The notes under the pieces: generated by a model | What the model saw: only the letters and a program-made list of their open reading frames with translations | The model's database searches: none | What the model was told of the DNA's origin: nothing | Shown: in pieces, positions 106 to 19,408 of the stretch | Layout of the letters: each line of letters opens with the position of its first letter | Position numbering within the stretch: the first letter of the stretch is position 1 | Origin: Rhodospirillales bacterium | GTDB lineage: Bacteria > Pseudomonadota > Alphaproteobacteria > Bin95 | DNA: 19,408 bases | Direction of reading: 5' to 3' | Assembly (NCBI GenBank): GCA_038143065.1 | Contig: JAYQLI010000027.1 | Location: 1 to 19,408 of the forward strand | Translations under genes and position numbers: made by a program

Positions 106-319
106 TCAAGGTCCGTGGACCGGACCTTGTATGCTGGACCTTGGCCCTCCGACCAGGGTTAGGGTTGAAGCAAGGTTGCAGGTAAGGACGATACCAGTTG
201 ACCTGTAGGAGCGGCTTGCTAACCTGTTGTGATATAGCTGGATTCAGTCACACGGCTGGCAACATGAGGCGTCGAACCCTTCAGCGGGCACCATACCAAG
301 CTTCAAGGTCCGTGGACCG
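106..319. repeat. 17-bp direct repeat TCAAGGTCCGTGGACCG (106-122 and 303-319) in a GC-rich short-repeat region
   Basis: Both copies read directly. Each contains the palindrome GGTCC-gt-GGACC. The first copy extends into an 8-bp hairpin AAGGTCCG/CGGACCTT (108-128). Confidence 0.8.
272..293 (+). other. Degenerate tRNA 3'-end remnant / att-like site
   Basis: TCGAAC-CCTTC-AGCGGGC-ACCA has the spacing of T-loop, T-stem 3' strand, acceptor 3' strand and ACCA. No complete tRNA 5' half is visible upstream. Confidence 0.45.
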
Positions 320-2052: not shown

Positions 2053-2481
2053 TGTAACCTTTGGTTACCCCAGTTGCCACTAGCCTGGGTTATCAAAAAG
2101 GTTGGAGACATGGACAAGGATCTATTTCGCAACACGCTTGCTACGAATGCGCTGTCAACTGGCAGGCCAATAGATCCAAAAAGCCAAATCGTTTCGGCAT
2201 TTGTTCCTTCTGATCGTCCTTGCTTACATCTCTTACATTTTGGCACGAGGTTGGGTTTGGAGCTTAAGGGCACGCCATCTTGTTCTTGCATGGGTTCCGA
2301 TCATCCTCGCGGCCATGATAATCGGCGGAGAGTCGCCATAGAATTAATGCACAATACTGGACAGTTGGCTGAATCTCTACATTGCTGAATTCATCCCTTG
2401 AAACAAAAGCGGGGCACTTCTCTGGCATTTGTGTTGAAAAAGCATCACATCCCAGTGAAGGGTCTGCCGGATTAGGAACGG

Positions 2482-3630
2482 CTAGTGGTTGTAACCAATT
2501 GCTCTCATCCATCTGGCTTTGACCTCGAGACCATAGCCGCTGCCATATTTCTGGCCCACGCCTGCGGTGGCCCAACCGCCGATGGCATCGATGATCTGAC
2601 GGGCATTCAACACGAAGGCAAATCGCGGAGACTATGCCGGAAGAGTGAACCACACAGCCGCCAGGGACGCGTGGCTTCAGCCACTTGTTGATAGCCGCGC
2701 TGGCAGAGTTGGCGCTGCAGCCAGAACTGTTCGTGTATCTAGGGAAGGCGAAGTCCTGCTGGCTCTCGACAATGCGCCTTGCTGCCCAAAGTGACATGCC
2801 AACCAGTGGAATGTCACGCTCCCTTGGTCTTCAAACGCCAGGGTGTCCGACAAGGTTGATGTAAGATGTAGAATGTCGACATCAAGTTTAATGTCCGATA
2901 CCAGCAGTCCCTGCAGCTTCAGCAAGGCGCATACCTGTGTCACTGATCAGCGCCACCAGCCATCTGACATCGTCATCCAGTTCAATGCATCCTTCTGGAT
3001 GGCCACAAGGCCTCTTCGGGAATCGGCAATCGGGTAAACGTCCTCATCATCCGGGATGAAGGACGTTGGCGAACACATTGGGACAGGCGAGGCCATACTC
3101 TCTGATGGCAAGGTTGGTGATGGCTTTGACTGTGCCAAAGACACGGGCGCACTGATGCCGCCGTCATACCCTTGCCAAGCAGATAATCCCTGAACCGTCC
3201 TGCATCTGAAGCCGATAGAGATGACGGCTTTCTGCGGCGGTGGCTTCTGTCAGATAGCCAATTGCACGCTCTGCCCCTTGGAAGAAGGTCTTGCTTCGGC
3301 CAGCGCCCTTCAAACGGAGATAGCTTTCGAGCGCGTCCTCGATGGAGACAGACACGCTACATCGGTCTGCCTCAACCTCCTGCACCAATGAAAGCCAAGC
3401 TCCTTGTGTGGAAGATCTCCAGGCGGATGCTGTCCCAGTATCGCTCCAGCCTGTCAGACAGAGCGGCAGCAGATCTGCGCCTTCGGCAGCTGATCTTGTA
3501 TGCAGGAGACGATCACCCGATCCTTGTTGAAACGAGAGCGCACATCTGCAGGGACACGGCGGGAAAAGTAGAAGATGCCATTACGGCGGATTAGAAGTAT
3601 AGCGTGATTTTGGATCACAGTTTGGCTCAC
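2482..3630 (-). CDS. DUF6538-domain tyrosine recombinase/integrase (frameshifted)
   Basis: N-terminal RRNGIFYFSRRVPADVRSRF (DUF6538-like), then ALESYLRLKG, ALISDTGMRLAEAAGL (catalytic Arg), LKT, NSASAAINKWLK, VHS..HSLR and DAIGGW...KYGSGY (catalytic Tyr region). Stop TAG at 2482-2484. Confidence 0.9.
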
Positions 3631-3631: not shown

Positions 3632-3696
3632 CTTCCTGACGTCAAACAACAAAATGCTTGAAAATCAGGGCCTTGAACCACGAATCTTTGGGTAAA

Positions 3697-3712
3697 TGGT
3701 GCCCGGGGGCGG
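3697..3712 (-). repeat. att core: duplicated 3' 16 nt of a tRNA (tRNA-Phe-like), CCGCCCCCGGGCACCA
   Basis: Reverse complement reads CCGCC-CCCGGGC-ACCA (T-stem 3' strand, acceptor strand, ACCA), matching my recollection of the alphaproteobacterial tRNA-Phe(GAA) 3' end. There is no tRNA body upstream. It lies between two integrase genes, and TGGTGCCCG recurs at 19400-19408. Confidence 0.85.
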
Positions 3713-3840
3713 CACTGAACAGATGTTTCAGTGTGTTTCGTGAGGTTTCAATAGTGCATTTTATTTGCTATTATTCAATGTGTTGATGAGGTTTTGTGTC
3801 TCAAGGCGTTTCACTGGATGTCACAAGATCTCAGATCAAA

Positions 3841-3861
3841 AGGTGGATAATTAGGTGGATA
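3841..3861 (+). repeat. Arm-type site pair AGGTGGATA x2 (left)
   Basis: AGGTGGATA at 3841-3849 and 3853-3861, immediately before the integrase start. A similar pair occurs at 19322-19343. Confidence 0.7.
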
Positions 3862-3864
3862 GAA

Positions 3865-5154
3865 TTGGCGCCTCGTGATCGCCTCTCTGCGGCATTCATT
3901 AAATCTGCAAAACCGGGCAAGCATTGTGATGGTGCTGGCCTGTGGTTCCATAAACGCGCCGGTGGCGGTGCTCAATGGTTCCTCCGTTTTGACCGATATG
4001 GCAAGCGCTGTGAGATGGGGCTTGGTGGCTTCCCCCGTGTAAGCTTGAAGCAAGCTCGTGGGCTGGCAGAGACGGCAAGATCACAGCTTGCTGCTGGCAT
4101 TGATCCCATTAAGGAGCGCCGAAGGCTAAAGCGTGAGGCGCTGCAGTCGGCTAACACGTTTGAGCATCTGGCTCATGAAGCCTTCGAGGCCCGCAAATCA
4201 GAGCTGAAGGGTGATGGCAAAAATGGTCGCTGGTTTACACCGTTGGCACTGCATGTCCTGCCAAAGCTTGGATCAGTGCCGGTAGAAGAAGATAACCCCT
4301 CGAGATCTTCGTGATTGCATCGGTCCGCTATGGCATGAGAAAGCGGATACAGCGCGCAAGGCTCTTAACAGAACAAACCTCGTCATCGGCATGCCGCAGC
4401 TCTGGGGCTTGATGTGGACATCGGCCTTGCCGAGAAGACAAAGCTGCTCTTGGGTAAGACAAGGCATGTGGTAAAGCACATTCCATCAATGCCATGGCAA
4501 GAGGCGCCAGCCTTCTATCAATCATTGGATGACAAATCCCTGCCGCAGCTGGCACTGCGATTGCTGATGCTAACCGGTCTTCGCAGCCATCCGGTGCGGC
4601 ATGCCCATCTCCATTAGATCAATGGGAACATCTGGACCATCCCCGGAGAGAAAATGAAGGGCCGCAAAGGCAAAACCTCAGACTTCCGTGTACCCCTTAC
4701 ACCCGAAGCCCTTCACGTCATTGAGCTTGCCAGTCAGCAGCAGCGGGATGGCCACATATTCCCTGGTGTAAAACGCGGGGTCATATCCGATGCCTCGATG
4801 GCGCGGCTCATGGAACGAAGAGGTCTAGAAGCAAGACCGCATGGCTTTCGCTCAACGCTGCGTGTGTGGCTGACAGAAAGCCAGCAGGCAAGCCGCGAAG
4901 TGGCTGAGACAATCATCGCGCATCAAACTGGATCGCTCACAGAACGCGCCTATAACCGCACAGACTTCCTCGAGCAAAGAAGAGAGCTGATGGAAGCTTG
5001 GGAGAGGTATCTGAAGTCAGGAGATCAGAGCCAGACCACCTATTCGATCGCTAGATCAATTATCCGCCCTCTAGGCTTCCCAATTTCGACCTTACGATCC
5101 ATAAACAACCTGAAGAACAGCGTGCATTTGATCTTATTGTGCATCGAAGGTTGA
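3865..5154 (+). CDS. P4-family tyrosine integrase with N-terminal arm-DNA-binding domain (frameshifted near 4300, 4395 and 4615)
   Basis: KPGKHCDGAGLW..QWFLRF..GKRCEMGLGGFPRVSLKQAR..GIDP (DUF4102-type arm-binding domain). Catalytic motifs LTGLRS, MKGRK, HGFRST, IAH and RAYNR. Likely start is TTG at 3865; the true C-terminus may be nearer 5030. Confidence 0.93.
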
Positions 5155-5207
5155 AGTTTTTGCCTCAATCTCAATGCCACGGCCTATAGCAAGTCTTGAG
5201 TGCTCTC

Positions 5208-5811
5208 TCACATCTCGATCGTGCGATCATAAGCCTCCACCATCCTGTCTGCTATCGCTCTCACCTCAGCAGGAGACCAACCAGACTGATATAATGTGTT
5301 TCCAAGTCCAAAACCCGTAACTCCAGCTTTGAACCATGCGTCGAATATGGCTGGTTCTACCCCACCAACAGCGTAGGTTTTCGTATTTGGCGGCAATACA
5401 GCCATCAACGCGGAAAGGCCTTCGGTCCCAAGCAGAAATGACGGGAAGATTTTAAGCCCATCCGCCCCGAAGCGAAGTGCTTTAAGCTCTCCGTCGGTGT
5501 CAGAACGCCAGGATAAGATAACAATCCGAGCTTCTTGGTTAGTCCAATGATATCAGGGTTGCAGTCAGGTGAGACAATCAGCTTAGCACCGATGTCCGAC
5601 AGCCGGTGGACGTCATCTGTTTTTAAGACTGTTCCCGCACCAATGAGCGCGTCTTCACCAAATTGGGTGCAAAGTTTTTCGATGCTGTTAAAAGGACGAG
5701 GTGAATTTAGCGGGACTTCGATCTTCGTAATCCCGGCATTAATTAGCGCATCGGCAATGCCGATCACTTCCTCGGGCTCGACACCCTTAAAATGGCAATC
5801 AACTCACGCAT
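5208..5811 (-). CDS. dgoA: 2-dehydro-3-deoxy-6-phosphogalactonate (KDPGal) aldolase
   Basis: MRELIAIL.GVEPEE..IEVPLNSPRPF, IGAGTVL, LIVSP, PGVLTPTE, AVGGV, GFGLG..LY. Its start overlaps the dgoK stop. Confidence 0.9.
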
Positions 5812-6745
5812 ACTTAACTCTCCCCAATGTCCTAGTAGCTATCTGAGCCAACCCTGCAAGTGACGCGTGCTTAGCTTGAACAACCTCAACTTTACAGCCC
5901 AATTTCTTAAGGATTTCCTCGTAGAACGTGATGGCCGCACTTCCCCAATTAGGATTACTTTCTGGTTCAACCAGTATCGTTTGATAGCCCAAGTTCCTGA
6001 CCGATCAACATTCCGGAGAAACGCGAACGCAGTTTTTCTGGAGGAGCATCATCCAGAAGCGACGCTGCTCGTAGCCCAAAAGTCCTTCCGCGACGCTTTG
6101 GGGTTCCTTAGCCGCCTGAAGCGCAGCTGACAAAAGAACACTTCGGTCCCACGCCCGGCTACCCATAGAGTGTCGCAAAATTGTATGGTTGGACAGAGCG
6201 TTAAACACCTCTCCAGTCATGAAAGTCGTAAAAACTTTCGACTTTTCCATTCGAGACAGATACCCATTTCGAATGCGTTCCCGGAAGACAAATTGCGCCG
6301 GAATAGTCGGGGTCACGAGCCATAAACCCGGCGATCTGAGTTTCTTCACCGCGCATAACATCCATTGGGGCCAATTGACTTAATCCCGGGAGAATATGAA
6401 CACTGATGCGATTGTCCCTGGTTGGCACGTGCGCGTCAATCCATCGGTAGCGACTGGTTCACATGGGACGCGGCGATATTCGGCTTCGCGCCATCCTTGT
6501 TTTGCGCCGACCATTCCGCTGGCATAGACCGGTATCTTGCGGTTTGGTGAAAGCCACGGTTCGATCAAGGACAACGGAAGGCAGACTCGAACTGATGAGA
6601 CTCTAGTTTTGCCATCCCAAGATCCGACGATTTCTCGTCAATAGTCTGTCCTGTTGCGTCAGCAGCAAAGACACGCAAATTTGTCGTACCCCAGTCAACT
6701 CCCTATCCAAGCTAAGTCGGTACTAGGCTTTAAACTCTCAGCCAA
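5804..6745 (-). CDS. dgoK: 2-dehydro-3-deoxygalactonokinase
   Basis: WIGVDWGTTNLRV, ASGMVGAKQGWREAEY..VP, DVMRGEETQIAG, CLPGTHSKWV and FMTGEVF..L..HTIL, rebuilt across frames. Confidence 0.92.
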
Positions 6746-7083
6746 TTTTCCAAACCTTTCTAGGGTATTTCACCCCGTTCCATTAACGTACTCCGCAGAT
6801 AGGTTACTAATGGAGCCTCAATACTTTCGGCTAGTTCAAGGAATTAGAAATCTTGCTCGTGTGGAGCAGCAAACGGGTCAATAGGCATATAGGCCATTAT
6901 AAAATCTGCGCCATAATTGCTGGCTCTTTTGCTGCATTCAATAGCGTCCTTGAGTGACCCAACTACCGCCATCATCATCGCTGATCGTTTAGCGTTGGCT
7001 TCCAGCAGCTATTGAATGAATGCGGTCAATATCAGACATCTGCATTGAGAAGAATTCAGCGCTGCACCCAGACGCATCTGACC

Positions 7084-7968
7084 CTATTTTCGGCTGTCGC
7101 GAATTTCCCGTTTGTCCAAAAACAGCTGCATCTCTTTAAGATCATAATCATCCAAGCTTGCAGAGTAATCTCTGACATTTGGCGTGCGAATGACACCCGC
7201 GAGGTGCAGGAACGTTTTACCAGCCACGGGACCGTAGAGCATCATGATGTTGATCATCGGCAATGTGGATTCATACAGGCGTCTCGCACCTGCAATGTCT
7301 CCTTGCCAGAATCGGTTGTAGATTTGAACGATCTCCGCAGTCAATGGAGTTGCGGGCATCGTGCCAGAGCTTCCACGCAGCAGTTCTGAAATGAGGTACA
7401 TTCCGCTTTTCCACCATAAACAGGAGATTGATTGCTTTAGTGAGCTCAAGCGTTTTGCCGATGGTGTGCGTGTCTGGATGCAATTCTTGTTTGATGGAAA
7501 ACACAAACCTATTCGTTTCAAGTATTTCAATCATTGCCGCATCCGAAATGCTCCCTCCAGTCGGTGGTGGCGCATTTTGAATCATAAGTGGCAACTGGCT
7601 CGCATCCGTTATCTCATTAAAATAGCGGATGGCTTCCTCGTCGTTTGCAATTGTTGGCGGAGTGGCGATTAGTCCGTCAACACCTGCCTTCGTTGCCATT
7701 TCAGCCAAGCGCGCCGCGTGAACGATTGAAACGCCTGACACGCCAGCAAGGACTTTCACCCGTCCCGCTACAGCCCCAACGGTAGTTTGGTAAATAGCGT
7801 CCCGCTCAAAGTCAGTTAACGTGTAATATTCACTGATAACCAGTGGTGTTGCGATGGCTTTCTGCCCAGCCTCGATGCAATATCTAACCATGAAAGTCCA
7901 TCCAAATCTAATATGTTGTCGTCCCCAAAAGGCGACATAAGAATTGGGATAACACCTTTGATGTCCAT
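7084..7968 (-). CDS. Dihydrodipicolinate synthase (DapA/NAL)-family lyase, probably a keto-deoxy sugar-acid aldolase or dehydratase
   Basis: MDIKGVIPILMSPF..LDLDGL, SEYYTLTDFER, AGRVKVLAGVS, ATPP, MIQNAP and SIKQE (Schiff-base Lys). RBS AAGGGA lies before ATG 7968. Confidence 0.88.
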
Positions 7969-7993
7969 TATTGTTCCCTTCATTAATTTAGTA

Positions 7994-9332
7994 TCAAAAC
8001 CGATCCAAACCTGGTTTGTAACGGCCCGGCGCGATCTCGCAAGACTAGAAAACTTCAGGCAGAAGCCATGGATCTTGCCGCAAGATCCGTCTGGCCAGTT
8101 CCGCTCAGCCTCAATCTTTAGCCACGTTGCATACTCGGTTCGCACATCATTTGTGCCAGTGTAGCGACCACAGGGCTTTGATCTTCACAGTGCGTATATT
8201 GAAGATGATGAATATCTTGTATAGGGGCACCAAAAATATTTAGCTTTCTTCAGGATCTATCCGTAAATCGTAAAGCTTGTGGCGCCTCATCCGCACTTAA
8301 TATGAGTTTGTGCGAATGTGTGCGCACACACCTTTGGATCGTGCGTGTTTTATTGGCCTCTGTCTGCCAGTAAAGGTGTGCGACCCTCGACTGAGGCGTT
8401 CGTGCTGCAAAGGCAGCAAACTCTGTCCTTCAGGGTTTGCGGGCATTTCGCTGATCAGGTCGTAGATTGTCGGCACGATATCTTCATACTCATAATGTCA
8501 TGCTTTACTTTTGTTATAACGCAATTCCGCCTTTAAAATCATGCGGCACACGGATGGAATCTTCTTACAGCTGAATTTGTGTGAAAGTTTGGCGTTTCAT
8601 CGAAGGTTTCGCCGTGATCAGACAGGTAGATCAGGATTGTATTTTTCCTGAAAGTTGATCGCACGATCAAACTTGCCGAATGCGCCCGACGTATGAATCC
8701 AGCGTTGTCACTGCTGCATAATACCCAGGGTTCACTACGCCTTTACCGCGATAGTGCTCGTAAAACTCAGTTGGAGCAGTAAATGGATTATGCGGAGGGT
8801 ACAGTTTTGGACCGCAAAAAAGGGGTTTTCCTGGAGCGACATTGCTTTCTAGGAATGCGATCATTTTGTCCGTTTGTGTTTCAGGCTTGTATTTGCCCTC
8901 TTGAAAGGGCTTGGCGCCCCTCCTCCCAATGGCCGCCTCGGGAATTGAAACCTTCCCAAATGTCAAACCGACCCGAGTTTTTTTCGTTGAGGTGCCATTT
9001 GCCAAAATACGCTGTGGTATATCCAAATTCTTGAAGGGCTTCAAATATTGTGGTTTTTACTTTGCGCCCTCGTAATTGAAAACATCATCGATGCCGTAGC
9101 GGTTATATGTTATTCCATGCGTGCTAGGGGCGAGGCCGGTCCACAACGTCGCGCGCGCCGGTGTGCAGACGGGATAAGGGGTGTAGGCGTTTCAAACGAA
9201 GCGCCATTGTTAGCCATCGTTCATCGAGATTGGGCGTATGCACAAAACAATTGCCATTTGCACCAATAGAATCCCACCTTTGCTGATCACTCACAATTAA
9301 TACGATGTTGGACACACTTCTGCACTTTTCAT
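7994..9332 (-). CDS. Cys-type (formylglycine-dependent) sulfatase-family hydrolase without signal peptide
   Basis: NIVLIVSDQQRWD..HTPNLD, signature VCTPARATLWTG (CxPxR, ~9135-9170), PPHNPF, YYAAVTTLDSYVGRI, N.ILIYLSDHGETF and C-terminal LYDL..DPEE..N. Confidence 0.9.
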
Positions 9333-9335
9333 TCC

Positions 9336-10566
9336 TTACTTGGGACTTGACTGAGCCACGAATTTCGGTGTTCAGCGGAATTCCGAGCAGCCAGAGGGTG
9401 CCAAAGCCACATGCGAGAAAATGCTCGAGCCAACTCCTAAAGGCCCTCCAGCCGCTGATATCGGCCCACGCCAAGGCGTGAGCGACTGTTTTATTCGTTG
9501 GCCAGTTCAACCATTGCTTGAAACGATATACAGGCACTTCACGGAATTCCGCGAAGATCTGAGTGAAGTTTCGGTAGAATTAAACGCGGGCGGTTCTGCA
9601 ACGGTTGCACGATATTCAGTCAGATATGCATCGCTTTTCACGGTCGCTTGATAAGCATCCTGCAAGAACGAATGCTTGGATCCATTCCAGGAGCACCCAT
9701 TACCACAATGGTCGCAGCCATCACCTTTGAGCGAAACCAGACATAGGCATCCCACCATTTGCCGGATGGCTCGGTGCCATAAAGCGCTTTGTGTGCCTCA
9801 AAGATATTTGGAACATCATCAGGGGAATGCCTTTCATTCGACTCTACGATATTGCCTGACGCGTCAAAGTGCGGGTGGTAGCATATTGGGTAAGTTGTTT
9901 TGCCATCGCCAAAGAATTTTTGGTATCCCGTTATACCCGCGTATCCGGTTAATTTCTCCCCATCATCGAGGCGGAGATTTTAGAGAACCCCTTAAAACCA
10001 GGAATGTAGCGGTAATTCGCACCGATAACTTTTAGGCCAAGGCTGCCCATCATGCCCACTATCGTTGCAGCAACGCGACCACCTACAACAATTGCGTCGC
10101 CTTCGACAACGTCCTTCAGGTCGTCAATCTCATCTCCGTCGTGCAACAAACGCCAGATCAGAACCTGCTGAGCCAATCACACCCATCTTTTTCTGGAACA
10201 AAGCGGATGCCAGGTGCGTTTGCGATTACGTGCCGAGGCATTAAAGGAACCGCAATAAAGGGAGTGCTCCCATCTGATTGACTGCTTTGTCGTACGCATG
10301 GTTCAATGCGGTTGTACCGCCGCCGCCGCCTTTGTTAATACCGGATCAGTCGGCGCGCCAGGGAGTATTTTGCCGAAAGTGTCGCGCGAAGACGCGTCCG
10401 TGAACATCACCACCGCTGCTGCCGCAGGGTTTCCAGCTGTAAAAATCGCGATCGGTTTTGCCGGTGAAATCTGCGGCAACAACTGGCGCAGCGGCCATAA
10501 TCAGGGACGCCAATAATCTAGGGGCGCAGCAATATCCTGCCACGGTTTTGAAAGTCTAAACTTCAT
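9336..10566 (-). CDS. tctC: Tripartite tricarboxylate transporter substrate-binding protein (TctC/Bug family)
   Basis: AAGGAGG RBS and ATG at 10566, signal-like region then AADFTGKTI, G.DVHGRVFARHF..LPGAPT and YRYIPGFKG. It lies directly downstream of the TctA-family gene. End is approximate. Confidence 0.75.
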
Positions 10567-10583
10567 TTACTACCTCCTTGGTT

Positions 10584-12690
10584 TTAGAACATCAGCCATA
10601 CCGGAAACCAATCCGGTGCGACTGACTTGACGAATTCAACGATTGGGGTGGTTTGCCCACAGGATGTGAACGACGCGGTCGCAGAAGGCGATGAGAGACC
10701 AACCAACACGCACCGGCGTAAAGATGCAGACTGTCTGCCGCTGTAGTCCCCAGTTCTTCAGGTGTACGCAAAGATAAACAACGGGATCGCAAGTTTCTGA
10801 CCAATCACCAGTGCGAGCAGAATGGTCGCGCATGAGATAGGCGGAAAGAAGACTGTGTAGGCTGCTGACGATTGAATCTCGAACACTCGCCGGAAAACTC
10901 GTTCAGAAGACCGTTTTGGTTGTCGCGTTAGGTTCGACTCTCGCACCAATGCCGATAAGCGCAGAGTAAGATGCCTGGCACCGCCCCAATCATCGGAGAA
11001 TGAGATTACCTGCCGATTGCGGCCATGCCGGCCTGCGTAGATGGCAACGACGAAGACTGCCTTCGTACGAGCAATAGAACGGACACGATAGATCGATAAC
11101 GATAGATCTGTTCGCTCGTCTTCAGCTTCGTCCAGATTTTTCATCGGTCTTGTTTGGCCTCTTCGCATTGGATTGTTGCTTAAGCTGTCCACGCAGGGAG
11201 TAGAACAGCGTTAACACAACAATACTCAGCAAGATCGACGATCCGGGCGACCGAGCCACGATGGAATCTTGATGGATCATCGTGCTCAGCATGAAAGCTG
11301 TTTTCCATCGAACTGCCCAAGATCAGAAGGCGAGGATCGCCGGCGGCCGAGGCCACCCCCTTTGCATGCATCAGATAGCCGATGATCGAAAACACCAACA
11401 ACGTCACCCAGTCCCCCAAATCTGCACTTGCGGACCAGGAGCCACATCAGGATGAACAGCATTGCACCCGGCACGATCAGATGACCCATGAGATAAAAGC
11501 TAGTTTGGAGATCCAGTTGCTCCCAGCATATGTTATCACAGCTGCACCACATTTAGCTACAGCTATATTCAGACCATCGAAAAACGTAATTTCGAGATTT
11601 GTGGTCAGCATGGATTTTCCTGGCTGCAGACCTTGTATGAGAAGCGCCGACAAAAGGAGCGTTCATCGCACTGCCAGGCACGCCAAATATGACAGTTGGG
11701 ACTGGAAGAACCGCCGCGCACAGCGTTGTTAGCCGCTTCGGGCGCAATCACGCCTCGAATATCACCCTTGCCAAAGGTCTGTTGTTTTTTGACGATTTGA
11801 TAGTGTGACCATAGGCAATCCATCAACCACCGCCCTGCCTAGACCCGGAATCATGCCGACGTAGACCCTGATGGCAGAGCAGCGCACGACCAGCCACCAA
11901 TTTTTAAATGCGTCTCGAATGCCTTGTAGTGAGAAGGTATTGCCACCGGTGTCCGCGAAACTTTCGCGATGGAGCGGTTTTTTGATCGCAAGATCCGACG
12001 CCACTGGGAACTGCAAATATCCCACAAGACCACAGGAACCAGCGGCAGTTTATCCAGCAATAATTGAACGCCCATCCGGGCACGAGGGATGGGTTCCGGA
12101 CCATCTCGCGTAGCCGATGGAGGATATCAAAAGACCAAAGCAGGCTGCGATCAAACCTTTGAGCAATGGTGTTCCAGCCGAGGGATAAGCCATCACAAGT
12201 CCGGTTAGGCCCAGCATGAACAATTCCGGATTATTAAAATTTGAGGTATGATTGGAAGCGCCAGTGGCAAGTAGAGACCGGCAGCATTATGGCCCCGATA
12301 GTGCCGCCGATCGCGCGTTACAGTAAACGCCGGCGCCAAAAGCACGCCTGGCTTGCCCCACGCGCGCCAAAGAGGATGCCCGTCGAGCACGGTCGCCTGA
12401 GACGCTGAGGTCCCGGACATTACCAACACCGAAGGAATTGTATCTGAGGTCGCCGTAACGGCGTATATGCCCAGGGAGAAGCGCAATCGCCTGCGCCGGT
12501 TCCATGCCATAAGTAAATGGTAATGACCAGACCATTACATCACCTAGAGCCACCAAGATCCTGGGACCGCCCCCAACCAAAGCCCAGCCAGGATGGCCAA
12601 TCGGCAAAAATGCAAACGCCGGCCATTGAAAGACCGAGCAGCGCGCTTGGATCAATCCTGCGTTTATTTTACTCAATCCGCTAGATCGAA
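10584..12690 (-). CDS. tctA: Tripartite tricarboxylate transporter permease TctA, apparently fused to a C-terminal TctB-like domain
   Basis: GAVPG, TSDTIPSVL...GTSASQATVLDGHP, G(M)IPGLG..VVD, FGKGDIRGVIAPEAANNA, PTVIFGVPGS and ILGSSMENSF, followed by a further hydrophobic ~200 codons ending PDWFPVWLMF*. Start is approximate. Confidence 0.88.
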
Positions 12691-12811
12691 CGAATATCGA
12701 TGATTGCATTTTTCTGTGCAACGCTAAACCGAAAGTAGCGTCGTTCGGATGTGCAGCTCTGGATTTACTTGCATAAGGCCGACGATGTGCGTTTTTAGTC
12801 TTCGGCGGTGA

Positions 12812-14042
12812 CTAGCGGTTATTTGGCCCTGCCCCCGGATATCCAAACAAATCAATTGTCGCGTCATTGGTTCCAACATAGCGCTCGGTAGAAATTGCAG
12901 TTTGATTTAGATCCGCTCCCCATCCCAGCACGCGTCGTTCAACTTTCAAAACCACCACCGCTGGGATGAAACAAAGGTACAGAGAGCAATTCTAGCTGCA
13001 TGCGGTTATGCTCTTTGTATTGCTCTTTCCGATGATTGTCGTCGTTTCAACCACCGCCGCAACAGTTTGCGAGATCACGTCTAAAACCGAGTTCCACGCA
13101 GGTTGTTGCAACGAGAACTCTAGATTCGAACGTCGACAAATATTTTGAAATCCTCACTGCTTCCCGCACGCCAGAGCAGAGACGAATGTCGGGCAAGTAA
13201 ACGTCGTGCATCGTCAGCTTTTACCATCGCAATCACATCCGACAAACTGGTGACATGTTCCGCTCCTGCAACTCTTAATCTCCGTGGTCGTTCGCAAAAG
13301 ATCTAATCTTTGGCGATATCATCAGAGGCATTTGATTTTTTCGCGAATGGGGACTTCCAATCCGTGGTAACGCCGATTTGCGGCCTCAAGTTCACGAAAA
13401 ATTCGGCGTGCGCCAAGGAGATTTAAGCGTCCGTGCAAGTCGACATTGATCAGCATGCCAGATCCGACTACCTGCGTCTCTCACGGCGTGAACACAGGCA
13501 AACCCATGATCCACTTTTTACCGCCTTCGATTTCTTGTAACGCGGCAGCATCCACGCCATCAAAGGGTTGCTATTTTTACCCGACGTATCCGTCCCTTTT
13601 CGCCTCAAGTGCTCGTTGCCGCCCAGCTCCTCTGGCGATCGATCTACAGTTCCGCGATTGATATTGGCGTAAATCGCAATTTCAGTGCGCTTTTGGCCGC
13701 CAATAAGTTCCATAGGAGAAAGGCCCAAAGACTTAGCCTGAAGATCAATTAAAGCTTGTTCGATACCGCTCACGAGAACCCGAGGCACCTCGGCAGCTAA
13801 GCGGCGTTGACATGCTGTCGTAGCTCATCGTCAGCGAGACCGAGACCCATTAAAGGTTTGAGTCATACCCGGCAGCATTTGCCAAACGCCCGCGCTCGAC
13901 CCCGAAATGAGAAACTTCGCACTGAGACGAATCCGATACTTCCATCTTCCGGCTATAACCTCCAGAAACAGCCAAGAGGTTTTGGGAGAAATCGGACACT
14001 CCATATCGTCCGGAAGTTTGACAAGCTACATGTCGTTAGCAT
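12812..14042 (-). CDS. Mandelate racemase/muconate-lactonizing (enolase superfamily) enzyme, galactonate dehydratase-like
   Basis: ISPKTSWLFLEV, SGIEQALIDLQAKSLG...LIGG, IYANINRG, KIA(P)FDG, INVDLHGR, AGAEH, LPDIR and C-terminal GWGADL. Confidence 0.8.
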
Positions 14043-14093
14043 GCTGTAGTATCGGGACTCGAACTTGTGTGTTTCCTATCTTTTTGGATGATC

Positions 14094-14106
14094 ATCGATT
14101 ATCGAT
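14094..14106. promoter_or_regulatory. Palindrome ATCGAT-T-ATCGAT in the divergent intergenic region, possible operator
   Basis: Perfect 6-bp inverted repeat about 50 bp upstream of the dehydratase start, between the catabolic operon and the LacI-family gene. Function is inferred only. Confidence 0.25.
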
Positions 14107-14317
14107 CGTGCCAAAGATATTGCAACTACAGCCTTGCGCTCTTTATGTGATGCCAGGAGCTACTTGCCGGCTAGGCGAATGTCGGAACCGGATCTCAAAG
14201 CGCAAAAAATAATTGCCAATCTCAGCACACACTGGATACTCTGCGTGACTTCAGCGATATCAGTAGAGAGAACCTCCGTGGGCGTTGAGCTAGGACACCC
14301 ACCAATTGAGTGCAGGC

Positions 14318-15330
14318 GTGCAAGCCAAAAAACCTGTGAATTGGCCGATTGATGTCGCTGCCGCCTCGGGCATACGCTCAGTGCGACGGTCTGGCGAGCG
14401 CTCAACAAACCAGACCTTGTCTCAAAGGAAACTGTTAAAAATTCTAAGAAGTTATCCGGCAGATCGGGTACTTCCCAGATGTGACAGCTCGATCATTGAG
14501 GACAGAAAAACAAAGCGGTCTAACATTGCTTTGGTTGTGCCATCGATCGATAAGGGCTTCGCCCCTTTGGTTCAGAGCATCAGCGAAACGGCCGAAAAAC
14601 TTGGGTTTGAAATCATCATTGGCATCTCAAACTGATCGATGCAGCTGGAATACAAAATCGTTACACGTCTGTTGGGGCGTCAAGGATTTCGGCGTTGATT
14701 CTTAGTGGCAACGACCAATCCTGAAAACAAAATCAGTTTGTAAGTCCGCTGGAACTACGGTTGTTCGATCTCTGGGTGCCGACGGCTCGCCGATCCAGAT
14801 CGATGATCGGCTTTCAATGTTGCACTTGGCGAAAGTGCAGCAAATCGTTTGCTTGCCAAATCGCGCACAAACTTGCTGATCGTGCTCAACACCAGTCACT
14901 CACGCGCGAAAGCTTTCTGATCGGCAGGCTTTCGTCGGGCGATAGCCGTGCAGCGACCGCAAATATTGGAATTGAGCACTATTCGATTTAGGCGAACCTT
15001 GAAGCCGAACTGAACGAGTTCTTAAAAAAATCAACATTGATCAATGGCATCTCATGTTCAATGCTTCGAGAGATCTGTTTCCCATTATCGAGAGCTGGCC
15101 GGGCTTCAAAACCGCGTTATACCTGACGACGTATCGGTCGCAGACATTCGGCGAACCGTCCCGGCAAACACCTTTTGGACAAAGGAATGGAGTTTATCAA
15201 AATTCCTGACCGAGAAATTGGTGAGGCTGCGGCGCTGCTGGTCGAACAGATGTTGACAAGAGAAGACATACCAGCGTCAGTCAATGACATGGGATTTGAA
15301 ATCAGCGGAAATCAGAGACGATGGGCGTAC
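14318..15330 (+). CDS. LacI-family transcriptional regulator (frameshifted)
   Basis: KKPV...DVAAASG..., RALNKPDLVSKET (HTH region), SNIALVVPSI...FAPLVQSISETAEKLGFEIII, VIPDDVSV and IKIPDREIGEAAA.LL. Divergent from the catabolic operon; end is approximate. Confidence 0.85.
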
Positions 15331-15590
15331 TGTTGCTTCCAACTGGTACTGGCCGCGGTTGGCGGTGATGGCGCTGCTGTGAAGTGGATATCAACGCCAA
15401 CCCGGCTGCGAAGCGACCATTCGTCGGCGATCTGCTGAGCAGACAGAAGGGCGCCAGAAATGCGTGTCTCGGTGATGCTCTCCCTGGCCTTTGCTGGTGA
15501 CAAAGCACCGAGTTTCGCGGCTCGCGGACCGCAGGACTTGCCTATGCACCCAGGTTCAGCGTGCCTCGAAGCACCACCAATTTGCGGTAT

Positions 15591-15618
15591 AATAACACCC
15601 CGCGAGCGGGGTGTTATT
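15591..15618. promoter_or_regulatory. Perfect 13-bp inverted repeat AATAACACCCCGC-ga-GCGGGGTGTTATT over the promoter/RBS of the HGGxSTG gene
   Basis: Read directly. It overlaps TATAAT (15588-15593) and ends 1 nt before ATG 15620. Confidence 0.7.
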
Positions 15619-15619
15619 C

Positions 15620-15967
15620 ATGCTGACAAAAGACAACGTGACTATCGGTATAGAGTGGCGTTTCGGGCCGGACTGGCCGGGGCAGCGATGTGGTGCGAAG
15701 ACACGGCGGGGCACCGCGTCAGTGTCCTGCCAACAAGAAGAATGGCCGGTGCCGACTACATGGCGGGGCCAGCACTGGCGCGAAGACCGAAGAGGGACTG
15801 AGCGCGGATCTCTGCGGCGAACCTTCGTCATGGGAAGTTCACCAAGGACAAGCTTGAGAAGCGGCGTGAGAATGCGCTGCCAAGGGACGGAGATACGTAA
15901 GGAGCTTCGCCAGATGGAGCGCGAGTTGATCGCTGGCGGGCTTCTCGACAAAGCACTGGCGGGATAG
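15620..15967 (+). CDS. HGGxSTG domain-containing protein (frameshifted)
   Basis: MLTKDNVTIGIEWRFGPDWPGQRCGAKTRRGT, then in a shifted frame QCPANKKNGRCRLHGGASTGAKTEEG, ISAANLRHGKFTK and ...IRKELRQMERELIAGGLL. Confidence 0.88.
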   Translation: MLTKDNVTIGIEWRFGPDWPGQRCGAKTRRGTASVSCQQEEWPVPTTWRGQHWREDRRGTERGSLRRTFVMGSSPRTSLRSGVRMRCQGTEIRKELRQMERELIAGGLLDKALAG

Positions 15968-16051
15968 CTTCCGTCGTAGTCATCCAGTTTGGGGCGGTTC
16001 TCAGGCCGAGAACGGGTTAGCTTTTTGCTCGTCGGTATTGTCACTGGGCGA

Positions 16052-16140
16052 TGTAGGAATGTAGGAGTTGTTTGATAAATCTCATTACTAGTTATTCCAG
16101 CTAACTATAAGTTGAGAGACTTACCCTTTACATTCCTACA
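16052..16140. other. Putative replication origin: nested inverted repeats around an AT-rich core
   Basis: TGTAGGAATGTA (16052-16063) pairs with TACATTCCTACA (16129-16140). Inner pairs are TCTCA/TGAGA and TAGTTA/TAACTA. It overlaps the primase-helicase stop codon. Confidence 0.6.
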
Positions 16141-18375
16141 CCAAAGAGCGGCGTCTTACAGCGTTACCGTCACTAAGCCTGACTAATTCAAAGTCTGGAT
16201 CGTTCTTTAAATTGGCAATGGAGCGTCTCCACAAATCGCCGATGGCTGGCATAAATGTACCATTTGCCAAGTCGCTGACATCTTCTTTGAAGTAGACGTA
16301 CAGTAATTCTACAGAATGGGCGCTTTGTTGATATGACGCTCAAGGCCACCATCTTCTAACCATCCAAGCACAAGATCAGCATCATGGAACCACTGTGTGG
16401 TAGTTTCTTCGACGGTCTCTGGAATACCGAAATAACCACGCTTGATGACTTCGCAGAGTTGTATGATGGCTAGAGCAATCACTTGGTTTGTTTGCTGAGT
16501 AGCTACCGTTCTACCTATCCCAACAACCCGCTCAGTTTTTCGGTATCGTTGTATCAAATGGAATGACGGATAAACGCCTCTCAACGCTGTAATCAACGCC
16601 ACCTTGGAAGCTTGGTAGGCTATTTGTTGCAAAAATATTGATTGCTTGTGGCCGGAACGGCACTGGCGGCTGGTAGACTATTTTACCGTTGAGCATATCA
16701 CCCGTTACGACCTGCTTCATTTTGTCTGAAGCGATAGCCCTTGATGAAGATAACTCGTCTGGAGGTTTGTTGCCTTGCCAATTAGGTTGGCAATGAACTG
16801 TTCTTTGCCAAAATCACTGGCACGCATGAAATAGACGTCTCTGGCAGGAGATAACGGATTAAATCCAAGATCTGGGATTTGCCATTTGCCGCCGTCGGCC
16901 CATAAAACACGAAAGCTTTTGGCTCTGCGATTGAGGTTGCCATTGATGCACAAGCAACACCAATAATCTGGAAAATTAAACACTTTATTTTTCCGCTTCA
17001 TCGCTCGTACCAAAGCAACCGTCCAATAGTTTTTTAGCAAGCCGTCTATGGCGTATGTTTGCTTTTCATCCCATGTGGCATCAATTGTGTGGCGCCTTGC
17101 AGAGATGGATTGTGCGCCACCAGCTTTTTTGCCCAGTATTGCTTATGCCAAGAAAGCCGTTACGCAAATTAACGCCAATAGAAGGCTGCAAAAAAAACCG
17201 GTATTTTCGCACATGCTATGAAGCTCGTTTAAGACGCCGTCTATAAAAGACTTGCTGGCAGCAAGGCGCTTTTTTCCCACTGAACGCCGTCTAGATCCTG
17301 CACTAAACGCCGTTGCTCACCACCACTGGAAGGGTAACCAGTGCGTGTCTCCATAAAAACCCAAAGTCGCCCTTCATCAAAAATTGGCTTGGGCTTGTCG
17401 ACGCATAGCAATCGGAGAACATGCCGGGCGACAGAAGTATGGCTATCAACGCCAGCAAACAACCCGCTGGCACCTGTCCAGCCTTGGTCAGACGCTCTAC
17501 TGAAGATTGCATTTATGCTCGTTCTGTCTGGTTTAAATTTCGCAAATTGCCCTGCAACATCTTCAGGACTGACGTAGTTGGCCGGGATTGAGCCATCTGG
17601 TCTTTTTTTAGACCAATCTTGAAAACCGATAAGGCGTCCGCCCTGCCTGAGGACTTGAGCATAGCCTACGGCAATCCAATTGTCATAATCCTGTGGATCG
17701 AGATGGTTCAGCGCGTCAGTGACCCAATCGCAGTTAGCTGAGGCACCTGTATAGACATCGCTGGTTTGGGATTAAGCTGATCTTGTCTGGAAGCTGGCCA
17801 TTGCCAAACTTAGCGGATAGACGAGCTTCAAAAACATCCCTTAGAGCCGATATCTGGTCAGGTGTTACTACAGTAAGCCCATTTAAAGGGACATCAAGCA
17901 GGCTCTCATCCACCCAGTAATATGGGGTTTGAGTGTCGGGGTGAACGCCAAACACAACACTTTGTTGCCCGGCCCCAAGAATTTCGACCTGGATACTCTT
18001 AGCGCCATCTATGTGCGCAGTGGTCATCTGCTTGACCAATTGGCCAGATTCAAGCTTGTAGAACAGTGATCGTTTTGGTGTGTTGCCGAAGCGAATTGGC
18101 GCATGACCAAGAGTTGAGAGACATAAATTTTCGAAGTCGTCTACAAGCTCGTAATCGGGAATGTCGAGATCCACGACAACCAACTCACCTGCCTTCACTC
18201 CCACACCGTATTTTGGAAAACTTGATGCATAATTGCTAACTACGCTCGTTTCCAAAAATTAGTTTCTGTCCATTTTTCGATCGCTGGGCGTTTTGTTCCA
18301 GGAACAATCGGGATGGCTTCATATCCGTTCTCGAGCAATAGGTGCGGCTTTGCCGTAATACAGGCTCTTATTCAT
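16136..18375 (-). CDS. Primase-helicase: Prim-Pol N-terminus + PriCT-2 + D5-like SF3 helicase (frameshifted)
   Basis: LLENGYEAIPIVPGTKRPAIEKW, GVGV..GELVVVDLD, VEILGAGQQSVVFGVHPDTQTPYYW. PriCT-2-like ALNHLDPQDYDNWIAVGYA..FQDWS. Walker A YGPTAANGKS, then KQVVTGD and IFATNSLP..RRLSVIPF. Confidence 0.9.
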
Positions 18376-18569
18376 CGCCAGCGCCTTGAGTTTGCTCCGT
18401 TTGGCGAGCAGACCTAAGCGATTTTACCCATTGTTGGATATGGTCCCGCCCAGCCAATGGCTCGCTTGCCGAGCTTCACAGGTTTTGAAAGCTTCCAGAC
18501 CAGCAGTCGATAGATCGAGGCACGACTGACCCCCAGCTCACTGCAAACGTCTTTCATGCGTAAAATCAT
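18368..18569 (-). CDS. alpA: AlpA-family regulator / excisionase (not in the ORF track; frameshifted)
   Basis: GGAGG RBS, then MILRMKDVCSELGVSRASIYRL...KPVKLGKRAIGW...IQQWV. Its stop overlaps the primase start. Confidence 0.88.
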
Positions 18570-18646
18570 TTTGCCTCCGGCGATTTCAGATGATCGCTGA
18601 AGGTCGCAAAATGTTCACAACCGGCATGCCGCCTGATTATGGGCAA

Positions 18647-19286
18647 TTACGCGGCACGAATTCCTAACTCCGTAACCACCGGTGATCTTCCTCGAAACGC
18701 CGGATGCCAGTGCGAGATTCTGGCTTCATGGAGGAGATCAGGAATGACTTCGGCCATCTCATCGAGAATGATTTCGCATGCTGGGTCTGGATGATCTGGG
18801 TCTTCCGCCAGCGCATCGTTTGCAGTCAAAGGGACACCAAAATAAGCTCGCAATACGCGCGCAAGGACAGAGATCAAGCGCATCGCGGTGCCCGTTTCTA
18901 GCCTTCGGTCCTCGTTTGTTGCCAACGTTTCCAGCAACGTCAGACATTGGCTGCTGACGGAGAAGCTTTGCACAAAGTGGCACGAGTTCAGGGGGGATTT
19001 GTAATCCAGCTTCCAAACGTTGCGCCATAAGACGCCCTAAGGCCAAACTCCCGCCAGGAACAGGTTTGAACAACTTAATGACGTGTCCGCCGGCGATACC
19101 GCTAAGGTCCGGCTTTTCGTCGATCGTTGGCGCTCTTAGCATGATACAGAGCAGGTGAGATCCGATGTCTTCTGTATTTCCGGAACCATCCAGCCAATCA
19201 TTTATGGAGCTTACGGTTGCCATCTGACATAGGTGTGCAGAAATTCCCGTGCTTGCTGTGATTTTGCATGTGATCCATGTGTTCAC
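18647..19286 (-). CDS. Hypothetical protein (~210 aa after joining two frames)
   Basis: ORFs 18759-19286 and 18647-18973 overlap and join near 18870 (KRGPKARNGHRDALI-SVLARVLRAYFG). It is co-oriented upstream of alpA. Confidence 0.6.
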
Positions 19287-19321
19287 TATCTCTGCGACAG
19301 CGTAAGAAAAAAGATTTTATA

Positions 19322-19343
19322 AGGTGGATGAAAAAGGTGGTTA
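19322..19343 (+). repeat. Arm-type site pair AGGTGGATG / AGGTGGTTA (right)
   Basis: Same motif and orientation as 3841-3861, about 57 bp inside the right att core. Confidence 0.65.
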
Positions 19344-19399
19344 CGAAGACTGGGATAACAGATCAACACGCTGTTTTATAATGATTTATCTAAGAAAAG

Positions 19400-19408
19400 T
19401 GGTGCCCG
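19400..19408 (-). tRNA. Probable 3' end (CGGGCACCA) of the target tRNA, or a further att copy; truncated by the window edge
   Basis: TGGTGCCCG is identical to 3697-3705. Only 9 nt are visible, so an intact tRNA cannot be confirmed. Confidence 0.45.

Follow-up and report, generated by a model that had tools for sequence, protein, structure and literature searches.

We analysed a stretch of 19,408 bp, here called the window, which is the whole of contig C27 of assembly G000 (52 contigs, 4.63 Mb). G000 is the source assembly and C1–C52 are its contigs; G-numbers denote other genomes and L-numbers the sequence stretches compared (among them L002, a stretch of G061; L034, the element of G146; and L104, a metagenome contig with an attR). 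On balance, we take positions 3697–19408 for an integrative island lodged in the 3' end of a tRNA-Phe gene in SAR116-clade alphaproteobacteria, one that swaps its cargo and would work in a tycheposon-like manner. An earlier note on this DNA had described a tycheposon-like, cargo-carrying integrative island, and the core of that idea holds: the organisation, the type of att site and the cargo were all found. The element stands, but the description had overlooked that the contig is error-ridden, that it comes from a foreign organism and that it carries a second integrase, of the DUF6538 type.

Features of the island

Genes were sought in stop-to-stop frames of at least 60 amino acids (aa) against Pfam, PHROGs and NCBIfam (150 C27 frames for Pfam). 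Every gene on the contig is broken: no open frame reaches 300 aa, and the longest stop-free stretch is 238 aa. Fragments of all the genes named earlier (integrase, alpA, primase/helicase, HGGxSTG and catabolic genes) were found, but none intact. Relatives supply intact open reading frames (ORFs), namely a 750-aa primase, an 88-aa AlpA and a 410-aa integrase, and a gene-level reading of C27 needs them because the contig is mis-binned and error-ridden.

The ends of the island carry a 9-bp direct repeat, TGGTGCCCG, at 3697–3705 and 19400–19408, the minus strand of which is a tRNA 3' end (..CGGGCACCA). Both copies of this proposed att repeat are present, but taken alone it is not above chance (the window holds 1006 pairs of repeated 9-mers, against ~718 in shuffles), and its meaning comes from relatives only; at the right copy C27 stops, and since the window takes in the complete contig there is no further sequence to follow. 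At the left, positions 3697–3712 match tRNA-Phe(GAA) over 16 nt. This minus-strand 16-mer, TGGTGCCCGGGGGCGG, is the last 16 nt of tRNA-Phe and is taken as the attR core, since it recurs at both ends of the G146 element and agrees with the attB junction of G147. It is followed by an element-side arm, the imperfect palindrome CACTGAACAGATGTTTCAGTG (3713–3733), conserved in G146, G061 and L104. At the right, only the first 9 bp of the attL core remain (19400–19408, minus strand); the homologous place in L003 and G146 runs into tRNA-Phe. ARAGORN found no tRNA in the window.

A P4-type tyrosine integrase gene (3796–5028, plus strand) faces inward from the left end. It has 410 codons with four in-frame stops and a garbled stretch, matches Arm-DNA-bind_3 and Phage_integrase, and keeps one frame throughout against the intact 410-aa integrase of G146 (88.5% aa and 92.5% nucleotide identity); in Pfam, the intact relative shows Arm-DNA-bind_3, Phage_int_M and Phage_integrase. 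C27 has only four copies of the motif AGGTGG[AT]T: a tandem pair of AGGTGGAT repeats at 3841/3853 in the integrase-side arm (3841–3860, plus strand; also in L033, L104 and L008) and a second pair at 19322/19335 in the tRNA-side arm (19322–19342, plus strand; also in L034, L003 and L002). The pairs stand at the same places in all seven sequences examined (C27 and six relatives), and an integrase that has an arm-binding domain probably uses them as arm-type sites.

A replication and regulation module occupies the tRNA-proximal end. Its largest gene encodes a replication protein with Prim-Pol, PriCT_2 and DUF5906/D5-type helicase domains by Pfam (16139–18375, minus strand), fragmented here and 750 aa long in relatives; against the P4-family C-terminal domain TIGR01613 it scored 100.2 bits, for a cut-off of 108.7. 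Beside it are an AlpA-family helix-turn-helix protein (18371–18619, minus strand; PF05930 and tblastn; 88 aa in relatives), a probable regulator or recombination directionality factor, and a conserved hypothetical protein (18676–19270, minus strand; tblastn; 203 aa in relatives) for which no Pfam, PHROG, NCBIfam or PADLOC family was found. PADLOC returned no defence genes among the unknown ORFs. Convergent with the primase lies the gene for an HGGxSTG zinc-ribbon protein (15611–15971, plus strand; 119–122 aa in relatives), detected with NF041373, tblastn and PHROG 9231 and a candidate for a protein like the small terminase subunit (TerS). Between the stops of these two genes, an inverted repeat, TGTAGGAATGTAGG .. 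AT-rich spacer .. CCTACATTCCTACA (16052–16148), is conserved in L034, L002, L003 and C27 and may be an origin or a bidirectional terminator.

The cargo module between integrase and HGGxSTG gene (5029–15527, minus strand, ~10.5 kb) is matched by nothing in the elements of the relatives: C27 and G146 are homologous over 3689–5024 and 15528–19408 only. All of its recognisable genes lie on the minus strand. They encode a DgoA-like 2-dehydro-3-deoxy-6-phosphogalactonate (KDPGal) aldolase in two frames (5211–5803; NF006600, 137.6 and 92.8 bits; PF01081), a 2-keto-3-deoxy-galactonokinase, DgoK, in three frames (6008–6637; PF05035, E 4e-24, 1e-10 and 1.4e-09), a fragment of a DHDPS-family lyase/dehydratase (7274–7987; PF00701, E 2.6e-16; TIGR00674/KdgD-like matches), a sulfatase in three weak fragments (8542–9579; PF00884, E 1.6e-4 to 5e-3; arylsulfatase NF010322, E 8.8e-07), the TctA large subunit of a tripartite tricarboxylate-type transporter in five fragments (11480–12534; PF01970 in five frames) and a fragment of an enolase-superfamily dehydratase resembling galactonate dehydratase (MR_MLE/DgoD-like, 13471–13824; NF010624, E 2.6e-06; PF02746 weak). 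From these family matches we predict that the cargo encodes a sugar-acid pathway of the D-galactonate type (DgoD-like, DgoK, DgoA), accompanied by a sulfatase, a DHDPS-family enzyme and a transporter of the TctA type.

Island copies, empty sites and exchanged cargo

Among species-representative genomes, the closest matches to a C27 primase fragment were two contigs, L002 from a SAR116-cluster single-cell genome and L003 from an alphaproteobacterial metagenome-assembled genome, at 92–93% aa identity, which bears out the alphaproteobacterial origin proposed earlier. In both, the tRNA is followed by the hypothetical protein, AlpA (88 aa) and an unbroken 750-aa Prim-Pol/PriCT_2/DUF5906 protein; G061/G062 have all three of integrase, AlpA and primase intact. 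In L003 and G146, whose backbones are 92–94% identical to that of C27, the sequence continues beyond the repeat with GGGGCGGATTCGAACC into an intact tRNA-Phe, the continuation that the earlier note had predicted. G146, a genome of the same family as the single-cell genome, carries the backbone on a 262-kb contig (G146:C19, where element and flanks span about 233,100–252,700) in the order intact tRNA-Phe, hypothetical protein, AlpA, split primase, HGGxSTG protein, ~10 kb of other genes, intact integrase, TGGTGCCCGGGGGCGG and a C27-type arm. Its element lies between the intact tRNA-Phe and the 16-bp repeat, which is a perfect direct repeat with copies 19.2 kb apart; together with the 16-nt match at the left end of C27, this upholds the tRNA-Phe-like site.

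Comparison of junctions gave the exact site. The attB of G147 reads outside flank (95% identical to C27 3630–3692), 16-mer, tRNA body; the attR of C27 reads G147-type outside flank, 16-mer, CACTGAACAG...; and the attL of G146 reads ...TTATCTAAGAAAAG, 16-mer, tRNA body. Further empty sites, which the earlier note had expected in relatives, were found in G140 and G084, in which tRNA-Phe directly adjoins the sequence that flanks the G146 element on the outside, and in G143, in which it adjoins the outside flank of L104. Judged by its flanks, the island is present in at least three settings, and for each of them a matching empty site was found.

The cargo differs from copy to copy. In place of the C27 genes, the G146 element has genes for two TRAP/TAXI transporters, an M24 peptidase, an oxidoreductase, LysR and an ABA4-like protein. 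Those that come after the backbone in G061 encode a metallohydrolase, an amidohydrolase, a methyltransferase and an ABC transporter of the phosphonate type. One backbone thus bears three different cargo sets (C27, G146, G061), which is the pattern that the earlier note had sought. DNA of the C27 cargo was found at no locus in 96 family genomes, beyond patches of at most 185 nt, and therefore nowhere without the backbone, an arrangement that the note had held would speak against the island. Near-identical copies of the C27 cargo variant do occur in marine metagenomes of at least four studies.

The G146 element itself holds a second HGGxSTG segment in the middle of its cargo (L034 5894–6346 and 12599–13051; 89% identity to C27 15528–15979), and its primase is split in two (L034 13209–15460); the element appears to combine two others and to have decayed in part. 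In G061 (L002), the place homologous to the right end of C27 runs into tRNA-Thr(CGT) (8775–8848), the last 9 nt of which, CGGGCACCA, are those of tRNA-Phe. This copy may reflect secondary-site integration through the common 9 bp. The G061 contig ends before the matching integrase end.

We queried the 96 family genomes with tRNA-Phe and the adjacent RNase G gene and obtained matches in 84, some of them partial or to other tRNAs; in cases of a match to tRNA-Phe itself, a contig end was very often no more than ~100 bp away. Twelve tRNA-Phe loci were inspected. DUF6538-type integrases stand next to the tRNA in G095, G088 and G091, a distant hyp–AlpA pair in G101 and a second full tRNA copy in G084, while nothing recognisable follows in G064, G119, G130 and G121 (for G121, 6.7 kb of contig only). 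The two full tRNA-Phe copies of G084 (L078, G084:C3; 12324 and 19857) are 7.5 kb apart, and no integrase was recognised between them with the queries used. The island primase was detected in 16 of the 96 genomes at E ≤1e-3, only three of the matches being close, and the HGGxSTG gene in 30, often in several copies. Islands at tRNA-Leu(CAG) and tRNA-Arg(ACG) with a DUF6538 integrase at their head contain the latter gene as well; by integrase, SAR116 islands are of at least two types, P4-type at tRNA-Phe and DUF6538-type at tRNA-Phe, tRNA-Leu and tRNA-Arg.

In C27, the overlooked DUF6538-type tyrosine integrase (2267–3594, minus strand; DUF6538, E 1.7e-08) is fragmented, lies immediately downstream of the att copy and belongs to a neighbouring element outside the island. 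It is homologous to an intact 462-aa ORF with DUF6538 and Phage_integrase in G061, and homologues adjoin tRNA-Phe fragments on C3, C5 and C46. C27 is a two-unit array, a DUF6538-integrase unit, the att site and the P4-integrase island, and the same junction is present in G061. In the DUF6538-integrase unit, several ORF fragments over 648–1941 (for example 763–1188, minus, and 1100–1609, plus) matched no family in Pfam or PHROGs. Positions 2577 and 5020 are linked, on opposite strands, in contigs from two metagenomes (X1, X6). G146 shows the same arrangement, a DUF6538-integrase remnant coming after the P4-type integrase; it is an alternative order of the two integrase modules in nature.

Other tRNA fragments accompany these units. 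A third, inverted copy of the 9-mer lies at 285–293, inside a tRNA-Thr-like 3' fragment (277–293, plus strand). This and further tRNA-Thr-like or Phe-like 3' fragments (L034 4126; L008 13175 and 15222) are followed by an arm, (A)GGTTCGA(C/T)GCC, and are probably att sites of DUF6538-integrase elements. After tRNA-Phe, the DUF6538 integrase is bracketed by inverted tRNA-3'-end repeats in L075 (G095:C1; 186–213 against 1782–1809) and likewise in L076 (G088:C1; 19869 against 18577); in G095 the repeat takes in 12 nt of the downstream flank and is 28 bp in all. Because the repeats are inverted, not direct, this layout would invert the segment, not excise it. Within G000, a tRNA-Phe 3' fragment, TGGTGCCCGGGG, occurs 16 times on eight small contigs (C2, C3, C5, C7, C11, C27, C46, C47) and with one mismatch on C9, but never on the main contig C35, whose tRNA-Phe differs by one base; the small contigs are therefore strongly enriched in tRNA-Phe island junctions. 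Several of these sites have a common upstream flank (AAATTAAGTCATTGATAT...).

Provenance of the contig

The broken genes of C27 raise the question of where the contig comes from. C35 (2.86 Mb) reads cleanly, with 1149 frames of at least 300 aa covering a fraction of 0.52 of its length, while a dozen other small contigs of G000 are broken like C27. Between C35 and the small contigs, only rRNA is common, at 86.5–88.5% identity for C39 and 79–84% for C49, mostly through substitutions; the rRNA operons of C39 and C49 are also unlike each other. Models of rpoB and recA match C35 only among the G000 contigs, and of 532 long C35 ORFs, 129 have any match on the small contigs, with a median identity of 34.5%. 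Since so little DNA is common to both and the two marker genes are on C35 only, G000 is a mixture, and C27 does not come from the organism that gives the assembly its taxonomic place. The C27 primase was found in none of 60 relatives of G000, which are uninformative for C27 because the placement of G000 follows C35. No SAR116-type RNase G/tRNA-Phe flank was found elsewhere in G000.

The breaks themselves behave like read errors. Against L002 and L003, C27 is 91.8% identical with 50–52 gap openings in 3.75–3.9 kb (50–54 when L034 is included), whereas L002 and L003 differ from each other by a single gap opening at substitution levels like those against C27. Contigs from four marine metagenomes of four studies cover the C27 cargo with very few substitutions and more gaps: other letters and gaps number 5 and 7 in 1.1 kb, 6 and 15 in 1.6 kb, and 2 and 8 in 0.8 kb; further pieces of 0.5–1.6 kb gave 7 and 4, 4 and 5, 4 and 7, and 2 and 8, and the longest match, a 7.4-kb piece, 333 and 360. 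Because the relatives read intact and gaps abound against near-identical metagenome contigs, we attribute the breaks to indel errors of a low-coverage long-read contig, not to decay.

It is very improbable that the breaks are real, either because C27 is a decaying, pseudogenised copy or because its host reads a stop codon as sense. All C27 genes are interrupted, as real decay would have it, and taking TGA as sense does lengthen open frames, to at most 497 aa. Yet the fragments of single genes fall in different frames, so that reassignment of a stop codon cannot mend them and an alternative code was rejected; the relatives read normally with table 11. Decay is countered by gaps that equal or outnumber substitutions against four independent metagenomes at ~99% substitution identity, which fits read error, and by the same defect on other small G000 contigs and its absence from the main contig. 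We also considered C27 as a noisy copy of another G000 contig and rejected this.

Slightly less credible still is an assembly chimera in which C27 joins unrelated pieces and the element as drawn does not exist. The mixed, low-coverage assembly would allow it, as would the end of C27 inside a repeat that occurs 16 times in G000. Against a chimera, the 262-kb contig of G146 has the same order (att, integrase ... HGGxSTG, primase, AlpA, hypothetical protein, att/tRNA), the left junction of DUF6538 integrase, att and P4-type integrase recurs in G061, and metagenome contigs bridge the integrase into the cargo (4981–5779) and cover 7830–15398 in one piece. X4 (record 17) is one contig that bridges the integrase end into the C27 cargo; among the contigs listed, none bridges 15398–15611. 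Contigs of the four metagenome runs gave almost no cover over window bins 648–1941, and X3/X4 contigs none over 13.6–14.9 kb. Summed contig depth is far higher in the integrase, HGGxSTG and DUF6538-integrase bins than in the cargo and primase bins, a measure that cannot rank genes.

Mobility, packaging and comparison with known systems

The earlier note had placed the cargo where packaging genes would be expected. No capsid, portal, large terminase, relaxase or type IV secretion system (T4SS) gene was found in Pfam and PHROG scans of C27, in line with the note; the notion that cargo replaces packaging genes is weakened by the HGGxSTG gene, since its TerS-like product means that the element may not lack them. 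The HGG_STG domain (NF041373) lies at 15654–15854 in C27 and passes the 29-bit cut-off both there (39.6 bits) and in an intact relative (61.6 bits). Relatives of the protein form 1462 clusters at 90% identity, the best 120 all at least 81% identical to it, and the domain family 6154 clusters at 50% identity. The island protein matches PHROG 9231, 'terminase small subunit', at E 2.5e-7; of 53 diverse family members, 19 match the same PHROG and 29 an unannotated one.

In viral genomes, many homologues stand in the terS slot. Among 16 phage records, 15 of them from Bacillus phages and one from a Pasteurella phage, the first gene is mostly the homologue (at ~170–550 in 13), and two annotate it as a putative terminase small subunit. 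Thirteen IMG/VR loci, which carry only distant homologues, have it directly upstream of a Pfam-confirmed large terminase subunit (TerL) in four cases, with a portal gene next in three of these; in five it lies upstream of an unassigned 440–580-aa ORF and a portal gene, and in four it has neither. One viral protein is 39% identical to the island protein over 96 aa, and the island protein and the phage proteins that precede TerL have in common a core of a C..C..C.H zinc ribbon, HGGxSTG and (K/R)HG(F/Y)(S/T). On several unrelated viral contigs (L115–L124), HGGxSTG-headed proteins of ~186–240 aa precede TerL and portal genes, which points to a small-terminase family, so far unrecognised, that would bind DNA with a zinc-ribbon head. 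We found no paper with the term HGGxSTG in a literature search. The association of this uncharacterised family with the small-terminase position in phages is a hint as to how cargo islands might travel. Small terminase subunits of phages are encoded immediately ahead of terL and combine a DNA-binding head, oligomerisation helices and a tail that binds TerL. The island protein remains a TerS-like candidate, not a demonstrated terminase subunit.

From these parts a cycle can be sketched. The integrase would bind the core together with both pairs of AGGTGG[AT]T arm sites and, with AlpA as directionality factor, excise the island as a circle, a step that we find fairly plausible. The Prim-Pol/helicase protein might then replicate the circle, with the conserved inverted repeat next to its gene as a possible starting point; here the case seems to us evenly balanced, self-replication being what we infer from the primase/helicase alone. 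Finally, and more doubtfully, the HGGxSTG protein could direct the terminase of an infecting helper phage to pack island DNA, and the cargo would spread as a satellite-like particle. Vesicles or plain recombination are alternatives to packing by a helper phage.

Several observations weigh against parts of this scheme. The right end of C27 cannot tell Phe from Thr(CGT), because both tRNAs end in the same 9 nt; the 16-nt Phe-type attR favours tRNA-Phe as the site. The integrase is probably not of a tycheposon-specific lineage but of a common P4/prophage type, because its IMG/VR relatives are only 42–54% identical and mostly on prophage-sized viral contigs. The primase of G146 is split, so some island copies may be decaying. 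The attP joint of 19399 to 3713 that the earlier note had predicted was not found in contigs of four metagenome runs, which drop rare forms and therefore make its lack no evidence of absence; the one metagenome contig with the element arm has an attR (L104). No close relative of the primase or the HGGxSTG protein was found on IMG/VR contigs, where the primase query returned nothing. A gene transfer agent (GTA) had been named as a vehicle: no HK97-type capsid or portal was found in five of five family genomes, with a positive Caulobacter control, so a resident GTA is unsupported there and no resident helper is known. As for the HGGxSTG protein, it has 119 aa against 186–240 aa for the viral proteins, the C-terminal half being absent, and no TerL lies beside its gene. 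Its structural model (pLDDT, the predicted local distance difference test, 84; a first model was poor, at 65.6), a zinc ribbon with a helical hairpin, had no significant fold match in BFVD or PDB, a sequence search of solved structures gave nothing below E 0.4, and the TerS assignment is no more than 'putative' in PHROG 9231 and in the phage records themselves.

The lack of any attP or circular form would suit an immobilised island, a remnant at tRNA-Phe with no excision or replication today and with cargo differences due to ordinary recombination, as would the composite state of G146 (split primase, duplicated HGGxSTG segment, tRNA-Thr-like fragment) and the status of tRNA-Phe as a general hotspot that hosts other integrases and breaks contigs in many genomes. 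We consider this unlikely. The genes for integrase, AlpA and primase are unbroken in G061/G062, as is the integrase gene of G146; conservation of the core, the arms and the arm-type repeats is exact to the base; presence and absence are polymorphic, with exact empty sites in three flank contexts; and the island is always the tRNA-adjacent unit, hence the latest arrival in the array.

A mobile cargo island is, in our view, the better account, and it need not involve phages. It could move by vesicles, free DNA or recombination in the flanks, the HGGxSTG protein being a DNA-binding regulator or replication accessory; this alternative is possible, though we would not expect it to be right. In its favour, the text of the tycheposon preprint reports cargo-carrying elements in vesicles, not in phage fractions (10.1101/2020.12.28.424599). 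No close copy was found on viral contigs, the HGGxSTG protein has half the viral length with only the zinc-ribbon head and part of a helix in common, and its genes are multi-copy in islands with other integrases. Against it, in 9 of 13 viral loci the protein in the terS position begins with this domain, satellites with TerS as their only packaging gene are a known design, and an island of 16–19 kb is about a third of the ~55-kb genome of the SAR116 podovirus HMO-2011. The fullest version of the phage-borne account, in which SAR116 runs tycheposon-like tRNA-targeting islands and the HGGxSTG protein, short and very abundant, is a stripped-down small terminase by which islands with 10 kb of cargo enter the capsids of infecting phages, strikes us as improbable as a whole. 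If true, carbon-utilisation pathways would spread by way of satellites, a route that was looked for in cargo-carrying tycheposons and not found.

The integrase, AlpA and primase/helicase core, the site-specific att and the size of 16–19 kb are those of phage-inducible chromosomal islands (PICIs) and P4-like satellites, to which a possibly small-terminase-like gene and a P4-family primase C-terminal domain just under the cut-off may be added. The island differs in that about two thirds of it is metabolic cargo, in that no helper phage is known and in that it is known from sequence alone. P4-like satellites have psu, delta, sid and epsilon beside int, alpA and the alpha primase; no genes of these types, nor for capsid morphogenesis, were found in Pfam and PHROG searches of the C27 fragments and the relatives' intact ORFs. 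PICIs and capsid-forming PICIs have a packaging module (terS and/or capsid morphogenesis genes) and are induced by a helper phage; the island has one TerS-like candidate, the HGGxSTG gene, and no capsid, portal or protease genes. Compared with the phage proteins, that candidate is half as long, primase-adjacent and multi-copy in SAR116 islands. An integrative and conjugative or mobilizable element was excluded, no relaxase, coupling protein or T4SS family being found in the 150 C27 frames or the scanned ORFs of L002, L003, L034 and L008. A prophage was excluded likewise: PHROGs on C27 gave integrase and primase only, and the element has 15.7–19.2 kb of mostly metabolic genes.

Cultured SAR116 isolates and phages exist, which opens excision and packaging to bench tests, and the clade is among the most abundant marine heterotrophs. 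Cargo islands linked to tRNA genes are regarded as drivers of niche adaptation among streamlined bacteria of the ocean and have been worked out mainly in Prochlorococcus and lately in Pelagibacter. We found no description of a SAR116 tRNA-Phe island family in a literature search; the phylogenomic study of SAR116 (PMC8547437) has no text on islands or integrases, and the clade is unmentioned in the texts of the tycheposon preprint (10.1101/2020.12.28.424599), whose Fig. 3b and supplements may show examples from Alphaproteobacteria and even from SAR116, and of a study of Pelagibacter (PMC11876622). The latter, from 2025, describes in its text tRNA-adjacent recombinase regions from marine vesicles and virus-like particles, called tycheposon-like or satellite-like. 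Like the island, these are marine, alphaproteobacterial and equipped with a tyrosine recombinase and primases/helicases; they differ in host clade and in that association with particles was seen there, the island here being known from its sequence (PMC11876622).

Closest in organisation are the tycheposons of Prochlorococcus, related elements of which are noted in Alphaproteobacteria (Hackl et al., bioRxiv 10.1101/2020.12.28.424599). As set out in the text of that preprint, tycheposons and the island alike integrate into a tRNA 3' end with a partial tRNA repeat, form tandem arrays at the tRNA, have an inward-facing tyrosine integrase at one end and a primase/helicase and regulator module at the other, and carry exchangeable cargo for nutrient or carbon acquisition between these modules in a streamlined marine host. 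The tRNA att site with its partial-tRNA repeat, the organisation and the cargo for local adaptation or interference with phages by which the preprint text defines tycheposons (10.1101/2020.12.28.424599) are all present here, and of the functional classes the island has integrase, AlpA-type regulator and primase/helicase. It differs in its SAR116 host and in the Arm-DNA-bind_3 and Phage_int_M architecture of its integrase. Moreover, the preprint text treats cargo-carrying and PICI-like tycheposons, the latter with terS or the major capsid protein (MCP) gene, as two categories, whereas the SAR116 island combines cargo with a TerS-like gene (10.1101/2020.12.28.424599). By its organisation, the island would be tycheposon-like or PICI-like in its working, a resemblance and not an assignment of lineage, and it adds to these systems a defined SAR116 family with an exact att core and arm sites, empty-site comparators and three cargo sets on one backbone.

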